From contig CAZDEE010000007.1 in assembly GCA_964504595.1 (NCBI GenBank), positions 725-64,724 of the forward strand: a stretch of DNA of 64,000 bases, given 5' to 3'. How positions within the stretch are numbered: the stretch's first letter is position 1; each line of letters opens with the position of its first letter. The DNA comes from an uncultured Staphylococcaceae bacterium. GTDB lineage: Bacteria > Bacillota_I > Bacilli_A > RFN20 > CAG-826. The position numbers and the translations under genes are program-made. Below the pieces are notes generated by a model that had not been told where the DNA came from, searched no databases, and saw only the letters and a list, made by a program, of their open reading frames with translations. Positions 51,233-63,681 of the stretch are shown here, piece by piece.

Positions 51233-51589
51233 ATGGCGGACACAAGAATTAGAGAAATAAGACTTAGAAAAAACTACGCAATGAAATATATTGCCTACCA
51301 TATCGGTGTAAGCATTCAAACAATCAGTAACTGGGAACAAGGTAAAACCGAACCAGATATTAAAAGCTTAGTTAAAATCGCCGATCTATTTAATGTTTCC
51401 TTAGACTACCTTTTATATCGTGATGATTTTAAACCTCAACTTTCAGCAATACTAAAAGATGTTGAAACAAAATCATCTGAAGAAATTAAATTATTAACAA
51501 TTTCATTTTTAAGAAAAATCGCCGAAATGGATATTCCTAAAAAGAAAAAGAAATTACCAGCAAATAACGATAACAATAAAGAAAAATAA
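51233..51589 (+). CDS. XRE-family helix-turn-helix transcriptional regulator
   Basis: IRLRKNYAMKYIAYHIGVSIQTISNWEQGKTEPDIKSLVKIADLFNVSLDYLL is a Cro/CI-type HTH. Divergent from the polysaccharide operon. Confidence 0.8.
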   Translation: MADTRIREIRLRKNYAMKYIAYHIGVSIQTISNWEQGKTEPDIKSLVKIADLFNVSLDYLLYRDDFKPQLSAILKDVETKSSEEIKLLTISFLRKIAEMDIPKKKKKLPANNDNNKEK

Positions 51590-54688: not shown

Positions 54689-55609
54689 TTATTTAAACAG
54701 TTTTTCCATCTTTAAGATTACTTTTCTTTTTTGTTCAATATTTGGATGTACATAAAGATTCATTGTTGTTGTAATACTTGAATGACCTAAAATCACACTG
54801 ACGGTTTTATAGTCACAATTACTTTCTATACATCTTGTGGCAAAGCTATGCCTTAAACCATGAAACTTTATAACTGGAATATCTAATTTCTTTAATATCT
54901 TCTTAAAATAATTACGATATGTTCTTGGTTCTATAGGATTGATGTCATTAGATATAACATAGTATTCTTTATTTAAGAACTTTTTAAATGATTTAATTAT
55001 TCTATATAATTCACTAGTTAATGGTATTTCTCGATATGAATTAATTGTTTTTGGTTCACTTATTATTATTTCTGTATTCATCTGATCATAATCATATATT
55101 CTCTGTATGGTTTTACCCACAATAAAAATCTTCTTATCAATATCTATATCTTTCCATTTTAATGCGCATATTTCTCCTATTCTTAATCCTGTAGATAAAC
55201 ATATAAATATTCCTAAATTCTTAAAATTAATATTATCTTTTAAATAGTTAATTAATCTCTTTTGATCATTAATTGATAGTATTTCTAGTTTCTTTTTCTC
55301 ACGTTCTGTAGGAAATAACGCTTCTATTTCATGATATTCAATTAAGTTATTCTTCGATCCAAATTTAATAATCATCTTTAATATCATAATGATATCTTTA
55401 ATAGTCTTTTGAGTTAATTTTTCATCAATCTTATTTAAAATAAAACTTTGAATATCTTCATCTAATATTTTCTCCTTCTCTCCAAAATAAGAAACGATAT
55501 GTTTATCCACTAAAGCAACATAAGTAACATATGTTGATTGTTTTACATATCTTTTCTTTTCCTCTTTCCATAAATTAACAATATCTTTAATTTTCATTTG
55601 CTCTTTCAT
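54689..55609 (-). CDS. Tyrosine site-specific recombinase/integrase
   Basis: TGLRIGEICALKWKDID (Arg I), HGLRHSFAT (H-x-x-R), LGHSSITTTMNLYVH (catalytic Tyr); 306 aa. Confidence 0.85.
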   Translation of the reverse strand: MKEQMKIKDIVNLWKEEKKRYVKQSTYVTYVALVDKHIVSYFGEKEKILDEDIQSFILNKIDEKLTQKTIKDIIMILKMIIKFGSKNNLIEYHEIEALFPTEREKKKLEILSINDQKRLINYLKDNINFKNLGIFICLSTGLRIGEICALKWKDIDIDKKIFIVGKTIQRIYDYDQMNTEIIISEPKTINSYREIPLTSELYRIIKSFKKFLNKEYYVISNDINPIEPRTYRNYFKKILKKLDIPVIKFHGLRHSFATRCIESNCDYKTVSVILGHSSITTTMNLYVHPNIEQKRKVILKMEKLFK

Positions 55610-55846: not shown

Positions 55847-56155
55847 CTAACGAAACTGAACTGCCCTTTCAAAGTTCACTTTAAATCCGACAGCAATAAT
55901 CATTTGTAAATTATAATGATTGGTATTATAAATTTTTCCATCTTCGGCAGTTATTCGAAATTTTCGAGTAGTTGACTCTTTAAGTAATTCATTATCATCA
56001 AAAATTTTCTTAATATGATAATTGATTGTATGCGATTCAACATCAAAAAGTAATCCCATCATTTTTTGAGTCAACCATATATTTTCATCTTCGTATCTAA
56101 CTTCAATATTTTGTGCTTCTTCATCAATGGATGCTATATAAATAAGATATTCAGA
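55847..56155 (-). pseudogene. rhuM: RhuM-family gene remnant (N-terminal third only, no ATG)
   Basis: The open frame reads SEYLIYIASIDEEAQNIEVRYEDENIWLTQKMMGLLFDVESHTINYHIKKIF...HYNLQMIIAVGFKVNFERAVQFR then TAG. Full-length RhuM proteins continue QWAT... for about 200 more aa. Confidence 0.6.
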
Positions 56156-56185
56156 TTATGAACTTTTAATAAGCATTTTTCTTTT

Positions 56186-56203
56186 TTGGTAATTAAAAAC
56201 CAA
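56186..56203 (+). promoter_or_regulatory. Operator-like palindrome copy 1 (TTGGTAATTAAAAACCAA)
   Basis: An 18-nt sequence with 5-bp inverted arms TTGGT/ACCAA, 8 nt upstream of the -35. Identical to the copy at 56253-56270. Confidence 0.55.
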
Positions 56204-56211
56204 AATAATTG

Positions 56212-56239
56212 TTGACACACAAAACCGAAGTAGTATAAT
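56212..56239 (+). promoter_or_regulatory. Near-consensus sigma-A promoter of the methyltransferase gene
   Basis: TTGACA (56212-17), a 16-nt spacer, TATAAT (56234-39), 48 nt upstream of ATG 56287. Confidence 0.65.
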
Positions 56240-56252
56240 TAATAGCGTAAGG

Positions 56253-56270
56253 TTGGTAATTAAAAACCAA
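56253..56270 (+). promoter_or_regulatory. Operator-like palindrome copy 2 (TTGGTAATTAAAAACCAA)
   Basis: The identical 18-mer, 13 nt downstream of the -10 and directly before the RBS GAAAGGAAGG. Confidence 0.55.
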
Positions 56271-56286
56271 GAAAGGAAGGGTCTAT

Positions 56287-58044
56287 ATGAAATTTGAAGA
56301 TTCGATATTTTTAAAAAGAGAGTTTAATTTTGAGGAGCAAAATTTTGCATTAATAAAAGCAATGGTTTTTATCTACGCTTTTAAAAAAGCGAAGATAAAC
56401 TACCCATTATTTGAAGTTAATAATAAAGTAATTAATCAAAATTATTTAATTAACTTACATGATTTAGCAAAAGATAATTTAAAAAAAATATATAATGTAT
56501 GTGGAGAACAATTAGGATGTCTTATTAATGATTGCTTAGAAAATGATAATAGCAACGTGGAATTACAATCGGAATTAATGCATAAATTATTTCTTTTAAA
56601 TAATTTTACAAGCGAAGATATTGAAAAGTATATAACAAATAAAGACAACTATATTTATGAAAAGAATGATTTTAGTTCCCCTAAAAGTCTTATCGATTTA
56701 GTTATAGGATTACTTTCAAAAGGAACCCATCAATCATGGTTTGATTTAGGATGTGGAAATGGTGATTTTTTAATAGAACTAGTGAAAAAAAATAAAAAAA
56801 ATGAATGTTATGGCGAAGACATTAATTATAATTGTCAATTGCTGACAAAAATAAGATTATTCTTCGCTAACGCTAATGCAAAAATATCTGAAAATAATAT
56901 CATCACAAGTCAATATAATGAAATTGTCGATGTTGCATATGCAAACATACCATTTTTAATGAGGTTATCAAAAACTAATTTTGATTATAATAAGCACAAT
57001 AAATACGTAGGAGAATTAAAGCCAACACAAAATGCTGATTGGATATTCGCGGATAGATTACTTCAATCAATCAAAGATAGAGGCATTATTCTTATGACTG
57101 AAGCAAGTTTAATGAATTTTATCGACATAGAGCAAAGAAAAAACGTTATAGAACAAAATCTAGTAGAAGGTATTATAAAATTACCGGATAATTTATTTAT
57201 ATATACTGGAATACCTGTATCTATAGTTATTTTTAATAAACATAAGGACAATCAAGAAATAAAATTTTTAGATGCTTCAAATATGTGTAAAATTGGTAGA
57301 AGACTATCAGAACTCAATGTTTCTGAAATTATAAGTGCATATAATGCCGAAAAGAAAACTACAAAAGTTAATATAAAATCAATATCAAAAGATGACTATA
57401 GTCTTCATGTAAAAAAATACTTAGATGTCAATGAAATTTTTCTTGAAAATGAAGTACCTTTAGAAAAAGTAGTTAATGAAGTATTCAGAGGTGCACAAAT
57501 TTCAGCGCCTGAAATTGATGAATACTGCAAGAATATAAAAGAAGAAGATAAAATATGCAAATTAATTACAGTTGGTGATATACAAGATAGTATGATAGAT
57601 ATCAATAAGCTTCAAATCATTAAAGATGATGGTAAATATAATAGATATGTAGTCAAAAACGGAGACGTTCTTGTTTCTTCTAAGAGCACAAAAATTAAAA
57701 CTACTGTTTTAGAAATACCAAAAGAGGAAAAATTTATAGCAACAGGGAGCTTATTAGTAATTAGGTGCGATCAAGAAAAAATAAATCCTTTTTATCTAAA
57801 AGCATTTTTCGATTCAACTAATGGAAAAAAATTACTAGAATCAATACAAACTGGAACAACGATTATTTCAATTAACGCAACTGCTTTAATGCGAATGAGG
57901 ATATCTTGTATAGATAAGAAAAAACAAGATAAAATTGCAGAAAGGTACTTACTTAAATTAGAGCAATTTAAATCAACTAAATTAAAACTATATGAAATAG
58001 AAAAAGAATTAATTAATGTATTTGATAATTCAATTAAAAACTAA
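56287..58044 (+). CDS. N6-adenine DNA methyltransferase (HsdM/gamma class) fused to a single HsdS-type target-recognition domain
   Basis: Motif X SPKSL, motif I WFDLGCGNGDFL (56743-63), motif IV ANIPF (56944-55; NPPF variant), LPDNLFIYTGIPVSIVIFNK. The C-terminal about 200 aa (from about 57440) has the Methylase_S pattern VGDIQD...VVKNGDVLVSSKS...ATGSLLVIRC...FYLKAFFDS plus a terminal coiled coil. Confidence 0.8.
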   Translation: MKFEDSIFLKREFNFEEQNFALIKAMVFIYAFKKAKINYPLFEVNNKVINQNYLINLHDLAKDNLKKIYNVCGEQLGCLINDCLENDNSNVELQSELMHKLFLLNNFTSEDIEKYITNKDNYIYEKNDFSSPKSLIDLVIGLLSKGTHQSWFDLGCGNGDFLIELVKKNKKNECYGEDINYNCQLLTKIRLFFANANAKISENNIITSQYNEIVDVAYANIPFLMRLSKTNFDYNKHNKYVGELKPTQNADWIFADRLLQSIKDRGIILMTEASLMNFIDIEQRKNVIEQNLVEGIIKLPDNLFIYTGIPVSIVIFNKHKDNQEIKFLDASNMCKIGRRLSELNVSEIISAYNAEKKTTKVNIKSISKDDYSLHVKKYLDVNEIFLENEVPLEKVVNEVFRGAQISAPEIDEYCKNIKEEDKICKLITVGDIQDSMIDINKLQIIKDDGKYNRYVVKNGDVLVSSKSTKIKTTVLEIPKEEKFIATGSLLVIRCDQEKINPFYLKAFFDSTNGKKLLESIQTGTTIISINATALMRMRISCIDKKKQDKIAERYLLKLEQFKSTKLKLYEIEKELINVFDNSIKN

Positions 58045-58087: not shown

Positions 58088-58999
58088 ATGGAAATCAATA
58101 AACAAATACAACTAAGAGGCGGATTCAGTGATAGAAATAAAATTAAGCCATTAAATATGGAAATGCAATTAACAGAATTTGATCAACGAACACGTATCGC
58201 TTTTATTAATTTAATTAAGCAATGGTATGATGATGAATGGTTTGATAATTATAAATATAGTTTCTATGAAAATTTATTAAGCAATGTATTTTCCATATAC
58301 ATATCAGATGATGTTATTTATGAAATAGAAAATGAAGAAAACAAACTATTTAATACTTATATTTATGATATTATAATAAATCAATCTTCTTCATACGATG
58401 ATATATTAACACTCTTAGAGTATATTGTTAATTGCTTTAAAGAAGCAGAAAGAAATGAGCCCTATAATGCTCTTTTCCCTTTCCGTCAAAATAAAGATTA
58501 TACTCAAGAAATTAATAGTTTATTTATAAAAGAATGTGTAGGCTACAGAATGATTGATAACCAAATAATACCAATTACTGATAAAATTGAATTTGAAGAA
58601 ATACAACAAGCTATTAAAAATAAATTTGAAGGGAGCAAAAATCATTTAAAAAAAGCAATCAGCTTTCTTTATGATAAAGAAAAACCTGACTATAAAAATA
58701 GCATAAAAGAAAGTATTAGTGCAGTAGAATCAATTTGCAAAATTATAATAAATAATGATAATACAACTTTAGGGAAAGCACTTAATAAATTAGAAGAATC
58801 AGGTATAAAAATACATAAATCACTAAAATCTGCATTTTCTTCTTTATATGGTTACTCTTCAAACGAAGGTGGTATAAGACACTCAGAAGGAATGCTTGAA
58901 AGCAATGTATCATTTGATGATGCAAAATACATGCTTGTTACATGTTCCGCTTTTATAAATTACTTGATTCCAAAAATAAATAGTATCGATAATAAATAA
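58088..58999 (+). CDS. AbiJ-N-terminal-domain-like protein with a C-terminal HEPN/Abi_C-like helical domain
   Basis: The N-terminus GGFSDRNKIKPLNMEMQLTEFDQRTRIAFINLI resembles the FSxRxGxKP...ELRNxLWN opening of AbiJ_NTD families. The C-terminus has SSLYGYSSNEGGIRHSEG (58868-82). Both calls are from memory of the families. Confidence 0.45.
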   Translation: MEINKQIQLRGGFSDRNKIKPLNMEMQLTEFDQRTRIAFINLIKQWYDDEWFDNYKYSFYENLLSNVFSIYISDDVIYEIENEENKLFNTYIYDIIINQSSSYDDILTLLEYIVNCFKEAERNEPYNALFPFRQNKDYTQEINSLFIKECVGYRMIDNQIIPITDKIEFEEIQQAIKNKFEGSKNHLKKAISFLYDKEKPDYKNSIKESISAVESICKIIINNDNTTLGKALNKLEESGIKIHKSLKSAFSSLYGYSSNEGGIRHSEGMLESNVSFDDAKYMLVTCSAFINYLIPKINSIDNK

Positions 59000-59039
59000 T
59001 CATTTTACGTCCATCTTTAATAAGTTATTTCTTTAAAAC

Positions 59040-59069
59040 GCAAACAAGAAAAATTATTTACAAACAAAT
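59040..59069 (+). repeat. Direct-repeat copy 1 (GCAAACAAGAAAAAT-tattta-CAAACAAAT)
   Basis: Matches 60852-60875 at 24/24 positions apart from a 6-nt insertion. Ends 17 nt before the KAP start codon. Confidence 0.6.
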
Positions 59070-59086
59070 GAAAGGAATTGTGGCTT

Positions 59087-60781
59087 ATGCATGAACAAAT
59101 TAATAAATTTATCCAAAATTATTTAGAAAAAAACAATACTAAAAGTGCAATTATGTTAACTTCACCTTGGGGAACTGGGAAAAGCTACTATATTAATAAT
59201 ACTTTAATTAAGTATCTAGAAGGAAAATGTATTATTATTCCTCTATATGGATTAAAAGATATTAGTGAAATCAGCAAATATATATTTTTAGAATACAAAT
59301 TTAGAAATTTAAACAAAAAAAATATAAGTACAAGTATTTTTAAAATAATAACTAAAATTATTATAAATGGATTTTCAAATTCTTTAGGAATTAATTACGA
59401 TTTAAATGATAAAGAAATCGAAAAAATATACTCATCAATAGATTTATCCAACAAACTATTAATATTCGAAGATGTAGAAAGAACTAAAATAGACATCTTA
59501 GAATTATTAGGATTTATCAATAGTTTAGTTGAAGATAATGTAAAAGTATTACTTGTCACTAATGAAGACGAGTTTAAATCTAATGACGCTTATTTAAAAA
59601 TAAAAGAAAAAACAATAAGTGATACAATTTATTATAACTTTCCTATCGAAGACACTATTAAAAGTATTGTTTCATCATTCAATAATGAAAAACTAAATTA
59701 TTTAATTAATGAAGACGATATGATTGATAATATTAAAGAAATAATGAATAAAACAAATGGTAATTTAAGGACCTTTATTTTAGCATGCCAAAAAACGATA
59801 GATATTTTAGAAACCTCAGATAAATTAAATAAAAACTTTATGAAAAAAATATTCTTAGGAAACATTGCTTTTTTATTAAAAAATCGAGATAAAACTACTA
59901 AATGGAATCTTGATGAAGAAATAGCATCTCATTCGTTAGGCACATACAAATTTCCTCTTTATAAAATATCTTACGACTATATAATAAATCAAATTTTAGA
60001 TAAAGAAACCCTAGAAAAAGTAAATGACAACTATTGCAAATTAGAAAAAAATAATAAAAAAAATAAAGAAATAGAAAGATATATGCAAACTATTTATAAC
60101 TGTTATACTTCTAATGAAAAAGAATTAATAAATGCTATAAAATATGTAACTGAAAAAATTCTTAACAAAGATATCGATGTTAATAATTATATAATGTTAG
60201 CAAATTATCTAATAGCAATTAAGTACGACCTAGAAATAGATAAAGAAGTAGTAGATAATTGTCTAAAAGCAATGTTATCTTCTGATATAGAAATAGAAAA
60301 TGAAACCCTTGATTTAGATAATTACTCAGGAATAAAGCTAGTAGACAAAAAAGCTATCGATGAATTTATTGATTTTAGTAAAAAATTAAAAAAAACAATA
60401 TATTCTTCCGTTAAAGCTAATATTATTGGATTTGATTATACTATAGAAAAAATCGATGAATTTTATGAAAAAGTTAAAATTAATAGTGATTCATTTATTT
60501 TAAAAAAAGGATTTGCTAAATATATTGATATTACAAAGTTTGCTGAATTAATAAAAAAATGTAACGCCTTTAACATATTTACTATTAATAAAATATTTAA
60601 AACAATCTATAATTTAAGCAATATAAGGGATTTCTTTTATGATGATAAAAGCAATTTAAGCGAATTAAAAGAAAAAATAGAAAAATTAAAAGAAGAACAA
60701 GGTCTTGATAAAGTTAAAAAATACCAATATAAGAATTTTATTACTTATTTAGATAGTACAATTAAAAGACTAAATATGTAA
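59087..60781 (+). CDS. KAP-family P-loop NTPase
   Basis: Walker A LTSPWGTGKSYY (59171-85), Walker B LLIFEDVER, and a long helical C-terminal half. ATG 59087 follows AAAGGAA; the track ORF starts at TTG 59078. Confidence 0.7.
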   Translation: MHEQINKFIQNYLEKNNTKSAIMLTSPWGTGKSYYINNTLIKYLEGKCIIIPLYGLKDISEISKYIFLEYKFRNLNKKNISTSIFKIITKIIINGFSNSLGINYDLNDKEIEKIYSSIDLSNKLLIFEDVERTKIDILELLGFINSLVEDNVKVLLVTNEDEFKSNDAYLKIKEKTISDTIYYNFPIEDTIKSIVSSFNNEKLNYLINEDDMIDNIKEIMNKTNGNLRTFILACQKTIDILETSDKLNKNFMKKIFLGNIAFLLKNRDKTTKWNLDEEIASHSLGTYKFPLYKISYDYIINQILDKETLEKVNDNYCKLEKNNKKNKEIERYMQTIYNCYTSNEKELINAIKYVTEKILNKDIDVNNYIMLANYLIAIKYDLEIDKEVVDNCLKAMLSSDIEIENETLDLDNYSGIKLVDKKAIDEFIDFSKKLKKTIYSSVKANIIGFDYTIEKIDEFYEKVKINSDSFILKKGFAKYIDITKFAELIKKCNAFNIFTINKIFKTIYNLSNIRDFFYDDKSNLSELKEKIEKLKEEQGLDKVKKYQYKNFITYLDSTIKRLNM

Positions 60782-60851
60782 ATGCCCTAATGTACTTGTG
60801 GTAAAATTTTACTCAAAAATTATAGCTACTAACAATTTAATTATGTTATTT

Positions 60852-60875
60852 GCAAACAAGAAAAATCAAACAAAT
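60852..60875 (+). repeat. Direct-repeat copy 2 (GCAAACAAGAAAAATCAAACAAAT)
   Basis: See copy 1. Begins 71 nt after the KAP stop. Confidence 0.6.
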
Positions 60876-60974
60876 CAAAATGATTTATTAATATATTTCT
60901 ATAAAGAATAAATTTTCGTACTTCAGCTTATTATCTAATAATCACTCGCGAAATTAACAAAAAACAGATTTTCG

Positions 60975-61009
60975 AACGATTTAGAACAAAAAAATTGTTT
61001 TAAATCGTT
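60975..61009 (+). promoter_or_regulatory. 35-nt near-perfect palindrome overlapping the -35 of the AAA ATPase promoter
   Basis: aacgatttagaacaa-aaaaa-ttgttttaaatcgtt (14 of 15 arm positions pair). Confidence 0.5.
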
Positions 61010-61023
61010 TGCGAGGTTATAAT
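60995..61023 (+). promoter_or_regulatory. Putative sigma-A promoter of the AAA ATPase gene
   Basis: TTGTTT (60995-61000), a 17-nt spacer, TATAAT (61018-23), 31 nt before ATG 61054. Confidence 0.5.
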
Positions 61024-61053
61024 ATTAATGTGGGAAAAAGGAGGTTATGTTTT

Positions 61054-62172
61054 ATGAAATTGTTAAGAATTCGTGCATCAAACTATAAGAATTGTTGTGA
61101 TAATTTTACAATTGATTTTATAGCTAAATCCAAGAAAACAAGCGAAGATAAAGAGTATGAATTACAAGAAATTGCAGAAGAATTATATGTTTTTAATACA
61201 GCTGCCTTTGTGGGTAAAAATGCATCTGGAAAAACTTCCGCGATTGAATTAATGGATTGTTGCTATTCCATTCTTAGTGAATTCCATTTAGAAAACAATC
61301 ATTATAATTATGATAATGTAAAACTAGAAATCATTTTCTATCATGAAGACTATATTTATAAATACACTACTGTTTTAAAGGCCGATTCAAATTCAGAAAA
61401 TAAAGCCAATTTTACAGAACAACATATTTATCGAAAAAAATATTATAAATCTAAAGTAAAAGAAATTTATTCAAATGATGAATTTGAAGAAATCAAAGAT
61501 TTAGGAGAACTTCCAGAAGATACTTCAATTGTTTTTTTTGTATTGAAAAGAAAAACAACTCGTGCTGTTTATTTTAATTGCAATGGTGAAGGAGTGGACA
61601 CATATCGCCTATTATTTAGAGCAATGAATACTTATAAAATATCAAAAGAAGTATTAATCAAGATTATAAGAATTTTTGATGATAATATTCAAAGCTTAGA
61701 AATGATGGATGAAAAGCATTATAAATTAACATATCAAAATTGTATAAAAGAACTATCTGATTCTGAATTAATTTATATGATTTCTAGTGGAACAACAAAA
61801 GGTATCTTGCTTTATATTCTTGTAGTCGCAGCGTTAGAAAACGGATTTGACTTATTAATCGATGAAATAGAAAATCATTTCCATAAAACACTAGTTGAAA
61901 ACATGATTATCTTATTTAAAGATAAAACTGTAAATAAGAAAAATTCAACACTTGTATTTACAACTCATTATTGTGAAGTTTTAGATTTATTTAATCGTCA
62001 AGATAATATTTGGATTGCTAAATCAAATGATAAGATTTATTTAGAGAATATGTATGAAACCTATAATATTAGACCAGAGATTTTAAAGAGTCGTCAATTT
62101 TATAACAATACATTTGATACTTCTGTTAATTATGAAGATCTCATGGCATTGAAAAAGAAGCTAATGAAATGA
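61054..62172 (+). CDS. ABC-type AAA ATPase (AAA_15/AAA_21-like), no fused or adjacent nuclease
   Basis: MKLLRIRASNYKNC, Walker A GKNASGKTS (61213-39), signature-like SSGTTKG, Walker B LLIDEIENHFH, H-loop FTTHY. ATG 61054 follows AAGGAGG; the track ORF starts at TTG 61009. Confidence 0.75.
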   Translation: MKLLRIRASNYKNCCDNFTIDFIAKSKKTSEDKEYELQEIAEELYVFNTAAFVGKNASGKTSAIELMDCCYSILSEFHLENNHYNYDNVKLEIIFYHEDYIYKYTTVLKADSNSENKANFTEQHIYRKKYYKSKVKEIYSNDEFEEIKDLGELPEDTSIVFFVLKRKTTRAVYFNCNGEGVDTYRLLFRAMNTYKISKEVLIKIIRIFDDNIQSLEMMDEKHYKLTYQNCIKELSDSELIYMISSGTTKGILLYILVVAALENGFDLLIDEIENHFHKTLVENMIILFKDKTVNKKNSTLVFTTHYCEVLDLFNRQDNIWIAKSNDKIYLENMYETYNIRPEILKSRQFYNNTFDTSVNYEDLMALKKKLMK

Positions 62173-62188
62173 AGTATTGAATTATATT

Positions 62189-62222
62189 AAAGCATTTGAC
62201 TAAATAGTCGAGTGCTTTTTCT
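62189..62222 (+). terminator. Intrinsic terminator after the AAA ATPase gene
   Basis: A 12-bp stem aaagcatttgac / gtcgagtgcttt (two G-U pairs), loop taaata, then a T-run. Confidence 0.7.
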
Positions 62223-62288
62223 TATTAGTAAACTGATAAACTTACAAATATATAAGGTTTACGAATCTTTAAAAACTGAGGCGATTAT

Positions 62289-62400
62289 CAAGATTTCATT
62301 CATCACTATAAATATTATAGATATCCAACTTCAAACTAAATAAGTCTCTAATTATTTAAGTGATTAATCTAATTATTTATCTTAATTTATCTTTGTACTT
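62289..62400 (+). repeat. Upstream copy of an about 100-nt imperfect direct repeat bracketing the DUF4143 ATPase gene
   Basis: A hand alignment with 63722-63822 gives about 80% identity plus one 11-nt indel. Contains TCTAATTATTTA twice (62347, 62368), 21 nt apart. Confidence 0.65.
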
Positions 62401-62453
62401 TTTGGATTAAAATCCAAAAAATGTTGAATTTTTTAAAGTTTTTGGATAAAATC
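62401..62453 (+). promoter_or_regulatory. Palindrome TTTGGATT-aa-AATCCAAA plus repeated half-site over a putative promoter
   Basis: 8-bp arms at 62401-08 / 62411-18. tttggat(t)aaaatc recurs at 62441-53. Candidate -35 TTGAAT (62424-29) and -10 TAAAAT (62447-52). Confidence 0.4.
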
Positions 62454-62478
62454 ATAATATAGAATGAGGGTGAGAATT

Positions 62479-63681
62479 ATGATTATAAAAAGAAAAGAAT
62501 ATTTAAATAAGTTAATCGCACTTAAAGACAAGAAAGTTATAAAGATTATAACAGGTGTTAGAAGATGTGGAAAATCAACTTTAATGGAGATATTTAAAAA
62601 CTATTTACTCAAAAATGGTGTTAATAAAAAAAATATAATTTCAATAAATTTTGAAGATTTTGATTTTTATGATTTACGAAATCCCAACAAACTATATTCT
62701 TACATAAAAGAAAAGCTAGATAGTGAAAATCAAAACTATATTTTCCTTGACGAAATTCAACATGTGGAAGATTTTCCACGAGTTGTAGATAGCTTATTTA
62801 TAAAAAATAATATTGATATTTATATTACTGGCTCAAATGCATATATGCTCTCTAGTGAAATTGCGACACTAATTTCAGGTAAATACATTGAAATCTCAAT
62901 GCTGCCATTGTCGTTCGCAGAGTTTGTTGAATCAACAGGAGACAAAAAAGACCTTGCAAGAAAATATATTGATTATATTCAAAATAGTTCTTTTCCATAC
63001 ACTTTAGAACTTAGAGACCAAGCAAATGAAATAAAACAGTACCTTGATGGAATTTATAATACAGTTGTTGTAAAAGATATTGCTTATAGAAAAAAAATTA
63101 CAGATATTTCTATGCTTGAAAATATAACAAGATTTATGTTTGACAATATTGGAAATCCGCTTTCAATGAAAAAAATTGCAGATACGATGACTTCTGATGG
63201 TAGAAAAATCGATGTCAAGACAGTTGAAAAATTTATATCTGGACTTACTGAAAGTTTTGTTTTGTATAAAGCAAATCGATATAATATAAAAGGTAAACAA
63301 TATTTAAAAACTCTTGAAAAATATTATGTTGTAGATATTGGGCTTAGGTATATGCTTCTTGGAACTCGTTCAACTGATGTGGGACATATTTTAGAAAATG
63401 TTGTATATTTGGAACTTTTACGTAGAGGATATGATGTGTATGTTGGCAAAGTTGACAACACAGAAGTTGACTTTGTTGCAATTGACAATAAAAAAACAAT
63501 TTATTATCAAGTATCCGCAACTGTTAGAGATGAAAGAACATTAAGAAGAGAACTTAAACCACTTCAAAGCATAAATGATCACTATCCAAAATTTATTTTA
63601 ACATTAGATGAAGATCCTGAAGCCGATTTTGATGGCATAAGAAAAATAAATGCTCTTGATTGGTTACTGGGTGATATTTAA
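62479..63681 (+). CDS. AAA_14 / DUF4143 ATPase
   Basis: MIIKRKEYLNKLIALKDKKVIKIITGVRRCGKSTL (Walker A), IFLDEIQ (Walker B), and a C-terminal DUF4143-like VGHILENVVYLEL...EVDFV. Start set at the sixth codon of the track ORF. Confidence 0.8.
   Translation: MIIKRKEYLNKLIALKDKKVIKIITGVRRCGKSTLMEIFKNYLLKNGVNKKNIISINFEDFDFYDLRNPNKLYSYIKEKLDSENQNYIFLDEIQHVEDFPRVVDSLFIKNNIDIYITGSNAYMLSSEIATLISGKYIEISMLPLSFAEFVESTGDKKDLARKYIDYIQNSSFPYTLELRDQANEIKQYLDGIYNTVVVKDIAYRKKITDISMLENITRFMFDNIGNPLSMKKIADTMTSDGRKIDVKTVEKFISGLTESFVLYKANRYNIKGKQYLKTLEKYYVVDIGLRYMLLGTRSTDVGHILENVVYLELLRRGYDVYVGKVDNTEVDFVAIDNKKTIYYQVSATVRDERTLRRELKPLQSINDHYPKFILTLDEDPEADFDGIRKINALDWLLGDI

Follow-up and report, generated by a model that had tools for sequence, protein, structure and literature searches.

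We analyzed a 64,000-nt stretch of contig CAZDEE010000007.1 (assembly GCA_964504595.1) from an uncultured Staphylococcaceae bacterium, referred to below as the window, in which a strong promoter is clamped between two copies of the same 18-bp sequence immediately in front of a gene encoding a protein similar to type I DNA methyltransferases. The 18-mer, TTGGTAATTAAAAACCAA, is found on the + strand at 56186-56203 (Box 1) and again at 56253-56270 (Box 2), with a start-to-start distance of 67 bp, the two copies forming direct repeats whose flanks are unrelated to each other. Between the boxes, also on the + strand, lies a promoter that matches the consensus at all 12 positions (12/12), with TTGACA at 56212-56217 and TATAAT at 56234-56239 separated by a spacer of 16 nt; it is the sole 12/12 promoter match within 55.6-64 kb. 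Gaps of 8 nt and 13 nt separate Box 1 from the -35 hexamer and the -10 hexamer from Box 2, respectively; relative to the predicted transcription start (near 56246), the putative upstream operator spans approximately -60 to -43 and the putative downstream operator approximately +8 to +25. Box 2 ends 3-4 nt ahead of the purine-rich ribosome-binding site AGGAAGGG (56274-56281, + strand), which was read from the sequence and is followed by the ATG at 56287. A first-pass annotation of this DNA, made from the letters alone, had described two identical 18-bp palindromes, 67 bp apart, clamping a near-consensus promoter, and we reproduced this arrangement together with its coordinates and both gaps. 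The term palindrome applies only in part: the outer 5-bp arms, TTGGT and ACCAA, are complementary, but the inner AATTAAAA is asymmetric. The same annotation had proposed a genome-wide count of TTGGT-N8-ACCAA against expectation; confined to the 64-kb window, the count gave 2 occurrences compared with 0.04 expected under a first-order Markov model, and no third copy of TTGGTAATTAAAAACCAA was found in the window even when up to three mismatches were allowed.

The gene behind the clamped promoter (56287..58044, + strand) encodes a 585-aa protein that, as judged from Pfam, PADLOC, AlphaFold2 (AF2) and Foldseek, combines an HsdM-like methyltransferase (MTase) domain with one HsdS-type target recognition domain (TRD) and a long C-terminal helix. 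In particular, Pfam recognizes N6_Mtase at residues 128-383 (E = 1e-32), residues 386-565 match the PADLOC Specificity_I models, and the PADLOC models of both the type I modification (M) and specificity (S) subunits match the protein. In the AF2 model (mean predicted local distance difference test [pLDDT] score of 86), an HsdM-like helical N-terminal domain and the N6_Mtase domain are followed by a single TRD (approximately residues 384-545) and the C-terminal helix at 544-576. The model matches HsdM subunits, CamA and the Vibrio vulnificus M-S fusion 7eew, and the TRD plus helix of this family match the half-S homodimer Esub1 (E = 1.7e-24) and the EcoKI S subunit. The HsdM structures 3lkd, 7vs4 and 3khk align to the full model over 440-480 columns, more than the MTase domain alone, and a Pfam search with residues 1-138, an all-helical region, returned no match at E <= 1 and no helix-turn-helix (HTH) domain. 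Motif I is intact, with FDLGCGNGDF aligning with motif I of EcoR124 HsdM, and motif IV, at residues 220-223, reads N-I-P-F where EcoR124 HsdM has NPPY, the canonical form being (N/D)PP(Y/F/W). With an N6-adenine MTase domain that carries motif I, one HsdS-type TRD and, behind it, a conserved-region helix that could enter a coiled coil, the protein has the make-up of a putative type I-like M-S fusion methyltransferase.

Three routes led to the related loci: look-ups of exact protein matches, a DNA pattern scan that started from the boxes and covered 185,579 species genomes, and a scan of metagenomes and plasmids that started from the protein. At E <= 1e-10, only 41 relatives were identified in a database of 5.8 billion proteins, and 29 distinct loci with upstream sequence (denoted by L numbers) became available, from Lachnospiraceae, Christensenella, Oscillospiraceae, Anaeroplasmataceae and other Bacilli. 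Family members are carried, for instance, by Eubacterium ruminantium FB3002, [Eubacterium] cellulosolvens LD2006 and Subdoligranulum variabile TSDC17.2-1.1, and the clamp is also present in Lachnospira pectinoschiza M83, where the gene behind it could not be assigned. The relatives are 18-76% identical, and their neighborhoods are unrelated, including DUF3990/NADAR genes, AAA_14, AbiEii, HNH, housekeeping genes, plasmids, and type I restriction-modification (R-M) operons. At least two TGGT-N8-ACCA-type boxes, with an invariant GG-N10-CC spacing, are present in 26 of the 29 loci, and the accompanying promoters match the consensus at 9-12 of 12 positions. The gap between the upstream box and the -35 hexamer is usually 0-12 nt (mostly 7-10 nt), although in some loci the box contains this hexamer; the downstream box begins 4-19 nt (mostly 10-13 nt) past the -10 hexamer; the box-to-box distance is mostly 62-68 bp; and the last box lies 6-35 nt from the start codon where the latter could be confidently placed. 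In an alignment of nine promoters, the only invariant columns are those of the box cores and some of those in the -35 and -10 hexamers, and Box 1, with its TGGT-N8-ACCA core, Box 2 and the two hexamers of the window all have their counterparts in the related loci. The repressor-loop or roadblock geometry to which the first-pass annotation had pointed is thus mirrored by an operator-like pair that is conserved across related loci. In several loci, a terminator directly precedes the first box, and the module therefore appears to be an insulated transcription unit.

Variation on the basic layout was observed as well. In L008 (4460-4640), the box-promoter unit is duplicated in tandem, the units measuring approximately 64 bp and comprising three boxes and two consensus promoters in all. 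The Lachnospiraceae-type loci L024 (7374-7467), L029 (2449-2540) and L035 (7497-7586) carry three to four boxes each, with the -35 hexamer TTGACA contained in the spacer of one of these (for example, TTGGTTATTGACAACCAA); a further box of L024 lies over the -10 region. Two groups of more distant relatives were placed outside the family, namely, Clostridium plasmid proteins (~28% identity, ~630 aa), which have no TGGT boxes, and the relative encoded by the Salimicrobium jeotgali plasmid pSJ25, where a different palindrome, AGTAAT-N3-ATTACT, surrounds the operon promoter. The latter locus (L062, 2080-2250) encodes a 632-aa protein, the gene being located between a DUF2325 gene upstream and a type I hsdM/hsdS pair downstream, and its palindrome pair may represent an analogous clamp with a different binder.

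The association between the clamp and the gene family, which extends over many gut bacteria, is close to exclusive. The scan of the species genomes for a box-TTGACA-box pattern produced 19 matches, 11 of which were coding or chance occurrences and 8 were intergenic clamps. Six of these clamps directly precede a family gene, and one (L027, the same as L004) stands at the head of an operon of five genes, a family gene among them; the eighth (L035) has a short open reading frame (ORF) downstream, near the end of the fetched stretch, that is not assignable to the family. Within 21 group-A loci (220 kb), 37 boxes lie no more than 200 nt upstream of the gene, compared with 2 elsewhere. Both stray boxes (L014 7432 and L043 6190) are coding coincidences in hsdM, in which the HsdM peptide G[LV]YKPH encodes TGGT-N8-ACCA. 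Among the 11 coding or chance matches, four fall in one conserved coding sequence of lactic acid bacteria (L021, L028, L031 and L036), which matches the full box-TTGACA-box pattern and which we take to be efp; together with hsdM, this sequence provides useful false-positive controls for motif scans. In viral contigs, the pattern scan gave two chance matches, both coding, and no protein relatives were found, nor did a phage collection yield any tblastn match. Because no other gene is common to all the loci, the methyltransferase-like protein is the only constant companion of the boxes.

Several features of the family suggest which part of this protein might read the boxes. The TRD is the best-conserved region across the family and the N-terminal domain the least conserved; for instance, the identities for the relative P0032 are 48% in the TRD, 35% in the MTase domain and 28% in the N-terminal domain, and the latter shares 8-46% identity with that of the window protein across the family. 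In ordinary type I systems, TRDs are hypervariable. In the present family, this pattern is reversed, and the high conservation of the TRD fits a fixed DNA target. In the logo of 46 group-A boxes, T2 G3 G4 T5 and A14 C15 C16 A17 are near-invariant and the length of the N8 spacer is invariant, whereas the spacer sequence is variable, to the extent that it holds the -35 hexamer in the three Lachnospiraceae-type loci described above. Where the box differs, in deep branches of the family, it does so by protein clade, with TTGGA-N8-TCCAA found in L048, L051/52 and L054-56, and AGGT-N8-ACCT in L040 and L042; the change is mostly symmetric and tracks the protein clade. In the TTGGA clade, the ratio of TRD to MTase identity falls to ~1 or below. 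These observations agree with the first-pass suggestion that TTGGT-N8-ACCAA is the kind of target expected for a dimeric protein with a single TRD, in that the TGGT-N8-ACCA dyad would suit a homodimer of half-HsdS-type domains. It is unlikely that the boxes are read by the N-terminal domain, which has no HTH match and is poorly conserved, and HsdM structures align beyond the MTase domain. For the same reasons, an N-terminal HTH of the SsoII-like kind, in what is an HsdM-N-like region, was rejected.

Our favored interpretation, held with somewhat better than even confidence and built on comparison of sequences, is that the gene product binds the boxes and, by this occupancy, represses its own promoter, a negative autoregulation that does not proceed via methylation. 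The HsdM-TRD protein would form a homodimer via its C-terminal helix, as half-HsdS proteins do, and the two identical TRDs would each recognize one half-site, TGGT or ACCA, across an 8-bp spacer. One dimer, at approximately -60 to -43, would block the UP-element/-35 flank, and a second one, at approximately +8 to +25, would act as a roadblock; the box centers are 67 bp apart, or about six helical turns, and the two dimers may therefore contact each other. The consensus-strength sigma-A promoter would be shut down once enough protein accumulates. The same promoter would probably drive the co-directional defense genes, that is, AbiJ-, PDC-S49- and AbiLi-like genes in the window and type I hsdR/M/S operons elsewhere.

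Some observations weigh against this interpretation. Within a locus, the two boxes have the same lineage-specific inner bases, a concerted change that this interpretation leaves without explanation, and the logo is weakly symmetric at 6/13 and 8/11, positions that should not be read by a type I-like TRD dimer. Some of the group-C downstream boxes are hybrids (TTGGA...ACCAA), and the symmetric covariation is therefore not clean. Furthermore, the correlation between box and clade cannot tell the TRD from the rest of the same protein, group C shows only a small drop of the TRD/MTase identity ratio, one that is confounded by overall divergence, and, at the metagenomic loci, a widely conserved host factor could be the binder.

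The alternative that fares best, although we consider it unlikely, is a catalytic feedback of the AhdI/CfrBI kind, in which the boxes would be methylation sites and N6-methyladenine (m6A), rather than occupancy, would tune the promoter. There is precedent for such control, in that AhdI methylates an AhdI site over the -10 of its MS promoter and thereby attenuates that promoter (PMC2275141); the window protein retains motif I as well as the N, P and F of motif IV, and a box overlaps the -35 or -10 hexamer in L024, L029, L035, L040 and L042. In the window and in most loci, however, the boxes lie outside both hexamers. Moreover, motif IV is non-canonical family-wide and is never canonical in the close family, where it reads NIPF (the window), NTPF, HTPF, YMPF or EFPL. 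Its first two positions drift across the family as a whole (NTPF, HTPF, YMPF, QPPF, EFPL, DTPL). In L032, L048, L051 and L054-56, both the glycine-rich S-adenosylmethionine (SAM) loop and motif IV are missing, and part of the family therefore consists of pseudo-enzymes, yet the full clamp is kept in all these branches; in L032, L051 and L054, Pfam recognizes the C-terminal half of N6_Mtase only. The polarity of the boxes also argues against methylation. Type I-like enzymes methylate an A of the 5' half-site and, in the 3' half-site, the base paired with a T (PMC3874165), whereas positions 5 and 14 of the window boxes, which are 8 nt apart, are T and A, the opposite of the expected polarity; A and T occupy these positions in the catalytically dead TTGGA clade. 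A search of the literature for GGT-N8-ACC or GGA-N8-TCC methylation motifs found nothing. The first-pass annotation had envisaged autoregulation through sensing of the methylation state by the methyltransferase itself. Self-regulation fits the constant partnership between the boxes and this gene, but methylation sensing is not supported, given the retention of the clamp in branches that lack the SAM loop and motif IV, the location of the boxes mostly outside the hexamers, and the wrong polarity at positions 5 and 14.

It is improbable that the boxes are bound by a different protein, be it a partner encoded nearby, an XRE protein encoded in the window at 51233-51589, or a regulator conserved among the hosts. 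The TGGT/ACCA half-sites are reminiscent of GntR-type operators, and the family gene has one recurrent neighbor, a downstream gene for a protein of ~170-176 aa (the ~175-aa partner), which is found next to it in L005 (4038-4421), L006 (3517-4047), L008 (6400-6927), L014 (6783-7295), L016 (6832-7344), L029 (4278-4805), L030 (4273-4794), L037 (4362-4892) and L043 (4377-4895). This gene is, however, absent from the window as well as from L009, L011, L012 and L032, all of which have intact boxes. The partner belongs to no Pfam or NCBIfam family, and its AF2 model consists of a long N-terminal helix and a flavodoxin/CheY-like domain, with no HTH and with weak matches in the PDB; given its absence from the window and a fold with no DNA-binding signature, it was rejected as the regulator. 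A suspected relationship between the partner and DUF2325 found no support (hhalign probability of 2%). The partner and the methyltransferase-like protein may form a two-gene system. As for the XRE gene, it is located 4.6 kb from the clamp, past nuclease and integrase genes, and is an unlikely source of the binder because it is present in no related locus. No DNA-binding regulator was detected by Pfam or PADLOC within 54.7-64 kb, in line with the first-pass remark that the module encodes none; no small HTH gene was identified in the module by Pfam or found to be common to the related loci; and no homology was detected between upstream ORFs of at least 35 aa within 2.5 kb in any two of 27 loci. 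A regulator conserved among the hosts would have to span the whole host range given above, and the box variant follows the clade of the family protein.

It is very improbable that the repeats are structural or recombinational, that is, a hairpin, a duplication scar or core sites of the tyrosine recombinase encoded at 54689-55609, 580 bp upstream. The arms are able to pair, TTGGT-N8-ACCAA is laid out like a recombinase core site (arm, spacer, arm) and L008 carries a tandem duplication. However, as RNA, Box 2 folds weakly (-3.8 kcal/mol, z 0.42), no better than shuffled sequences and leaving the ribosome-binding site free, transcription from this promoter does not include Box 1, conservation over deep divergence extends to the sequence of the arms and not merely to their complementarity, the unrelated flanks of the two boxes argue against a simple duplication, and the gene-called related loci have no recombinase beside the clamp, except for a resolvase in L004/L027 and a serine recombinase ~3 kb upstream in L014. 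Occlusion of the ribosome-binding site by an RNA hairpin was rejected on account of the weak fold, and an invertible or excisable promoter switch was rejected given that the repeats are direct and 67 bp apart and that the clamp is kept in recombinase-less loci.

A broader, tentative proposal, which we regard as possible but on balance doubtful, is that the family represents an exapted type I methyltransferase, the main job of which would now be TRD-based repression of transcription at the head of defense operons. The operators would then mimic the ancestral bipartite methylation target, the catalytic core having fully decayed in some branches, and, with the target base pair flipped in the possibly active members (T/A at positions 5 and 14), the operator could not be methylated. 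As a matter of pure speculation, SAM-binding members could couple the derepression of defense to the depletion of SAM by phages, given that SAM serves type I methyltransferases as a cofactor.

The surroundings of the clamp in the window are rich in candidate defense genes. Downstream, on the + strand, an AbiJ-like gene (AbiJ_NTD4; PDC-S32; 58088..58999) begins 43 nt past the methyltransferase-like gene and is followed by a PDC-S49-like candidate defense gene identified by PADLOC (59078..60781), by an AbiLi-like AAA_21 ATPase gene recognized by both Pfam and PADLOC (61009..62172), which is probably the last of the operon, and by a terminator-like hairpin (62189..62218). This hairpin is the sole one downstream of the clamped promoter, with no terminator-like site between the promoter and 62189, and the AbiJ-like, PDC-S49-like and AbiLi-like genes are probably co-transcribed from the clamped promoter up to that point. 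Beyond the 62189 terminator, an AAA_14/DUF4143 ATPase (PDC-S01) is encoded, and the same-strand defense island spans 58088-63681. No HsdR-type domain was detected by Pfam or PADLOC in the ORFs of 54.7-64 kb, and a complete type I R-M system was accordingly rejected. The left edge of the module is marked by a RhuM-family remnant on the - strand (55847..56176), with the recombinase gene lying beyond it. The remnant has an in-frame stop (TAA) at codon 7, is cut after ~110 codons, and is not a candidate regulator. Its ATG (56176) is 9 nt from Box 1, and the module therefore seems to have displaced or truncated the RhuM gene. Three metagenome contigs with an identical methyltransferase-like gene all end 210-350 nt upstream of it, within or just short of the remnant.

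In four of the related loci, L009, L014, L030 and L037, the family gene is followed by a complete, separate type I operon with its own hsdM and hsdS. The family gene, with or without the partner, lies directly upstream of type I hsdR/M/S genes in L009 (2706-7361), L014 (7346-11779), L030 (4926-8000) and L037 (4879-5445). In L014 and L037, the family gene and the partner continue straight into hsdM, and in L030 no terminator precedes hsdR and hsdM, which suggests that the clamped promoter drives whole defense operons. In L037, the partner ORF overlaps the start of hsdM, and, in L014, an AbiJ_NTD4 gene is located between hsdM and hsdS.

Autoregulation of methyltransferases is known in three forms, those of AhdI (methylation over the -10), of the SsoII type (an N-terminal HTH) and of CfrBI (site methylation). 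SsoII-type methyltransferases are C5 enzymes in which a separate N-terminal HTH region reads the operator. The likeness to the present case lies in a DNA methyltransferase that would repress its own gene; the difference is that no HTH was detected here, the N-terminal domain being HsdM-N-like and the least conserved, and that the proposed reading head is the TRD. SsoII, Ecl18kI, EcoRII and MspI-type methyltransferases double as repressors via a palindromic operator in their own promoter region (PMC3978073), and a preprint on CfrBI describes methylation of a CfrBI site in the shared promoter region. In the case of AhdI, a type I-like M2S2 enzyme, methylation lowers the activity of its own strong promoter, PahdIMS, ~2-fold in vitro and ~4-fold in vivo (PMC2275141). 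The AhdI system and the clamp have in common HsdM-like and half-HsdS-like parts, a symmetric bipartite target, a strong promoter that is lowered, or here would be lowered, by its own product, and an M gene with no dedicated regulator (PMC2275141). They differ in that AhdI relies on methylation of one site over the -10, whereas here two sites flank the promoter, the target positions are not correctly polarized adenines, catalytically dead relatives keep the sites, M and S form one polypeptide, and there is neither a cognate endonuclease nor a C protein. A site overlapping the core promoter, as in AhdI and CfrBI, was rejected for the window, where the boxes stand clear of both hexamers, such overlap being found in some relatives only.

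The closest parallels for the proposed mode of DNA recognition are half-HsdS homodimers (EcoR124I HsdS(delta50), EcoDXXI truncations, NgoAV and Esub1), in which a single TRD is combined with a coiled-coil helix and the dimer reads an interrupted palindrome, for example, GAA N7 TTC (PMC3874165). In an EcoDXXI derivative, the two target bases are still 8 nt apart (PMC3874165), the same distance as that between positions 5 and 14 of the box. Esub1, a homodimer of TRDs (half-S) and the nearest TRD with a solved structure, has been called transcription-factor-like by its authors (PMC11754733). These proteins are parts of restriction enzymes or, in the case of Esub1, have no known DNA target, and none is known to act on operators in front of its own gene. 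With regard to the position in the operon, RptR is encoded by the first gene of defense operons, often together with type I R-M, and represses itself via repeated palindromic sites with the motif TAGCTA (PMC12255303). The family gene likewise heads defense operons (type I or Abi), as do the genes of RptR, BrxR/CapW and C proteins, but the latter are small HTH or helical proteins with other motifs, whereas the putative regulator here is a 585-aa methyltransferase-like protein. RptR-type control was rejected because the motif differs, and R-M control by a C protein was rejected in view of the lack of a small HTH controller gene in the module or common to the related loci. In literature searches for the motif and for such fusions, we found no description of an M-S fusion whose own TRD likely reads an operator, of two operators that clamp the promoter, of conservation across Clostridia and Bacilli, or of such a clamp persisting in catalytically dead branches or heading defense operons.

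The prevailing view of classical type I systems is that their control is post-translational, and the transcriptional control of type I-like methyltransferases and of the defense islands of Firmicutes is poorly known. If the proposed mechanism is correct, and the TRD of an M-S fusion recognizes operators in the promoter of the fusion gene, bacteria would possess a novel type of DNA-binding regulator made from restriction-enzyme parts, and the family offers a natural series of possibly active members, catalytically dead members and three operator variants. The terminator, operator, consensus promoter, second operator and single gene would constitute a compact, portable module, and such a module would buffer the expression of toxic defense genes after horizontal transfer.

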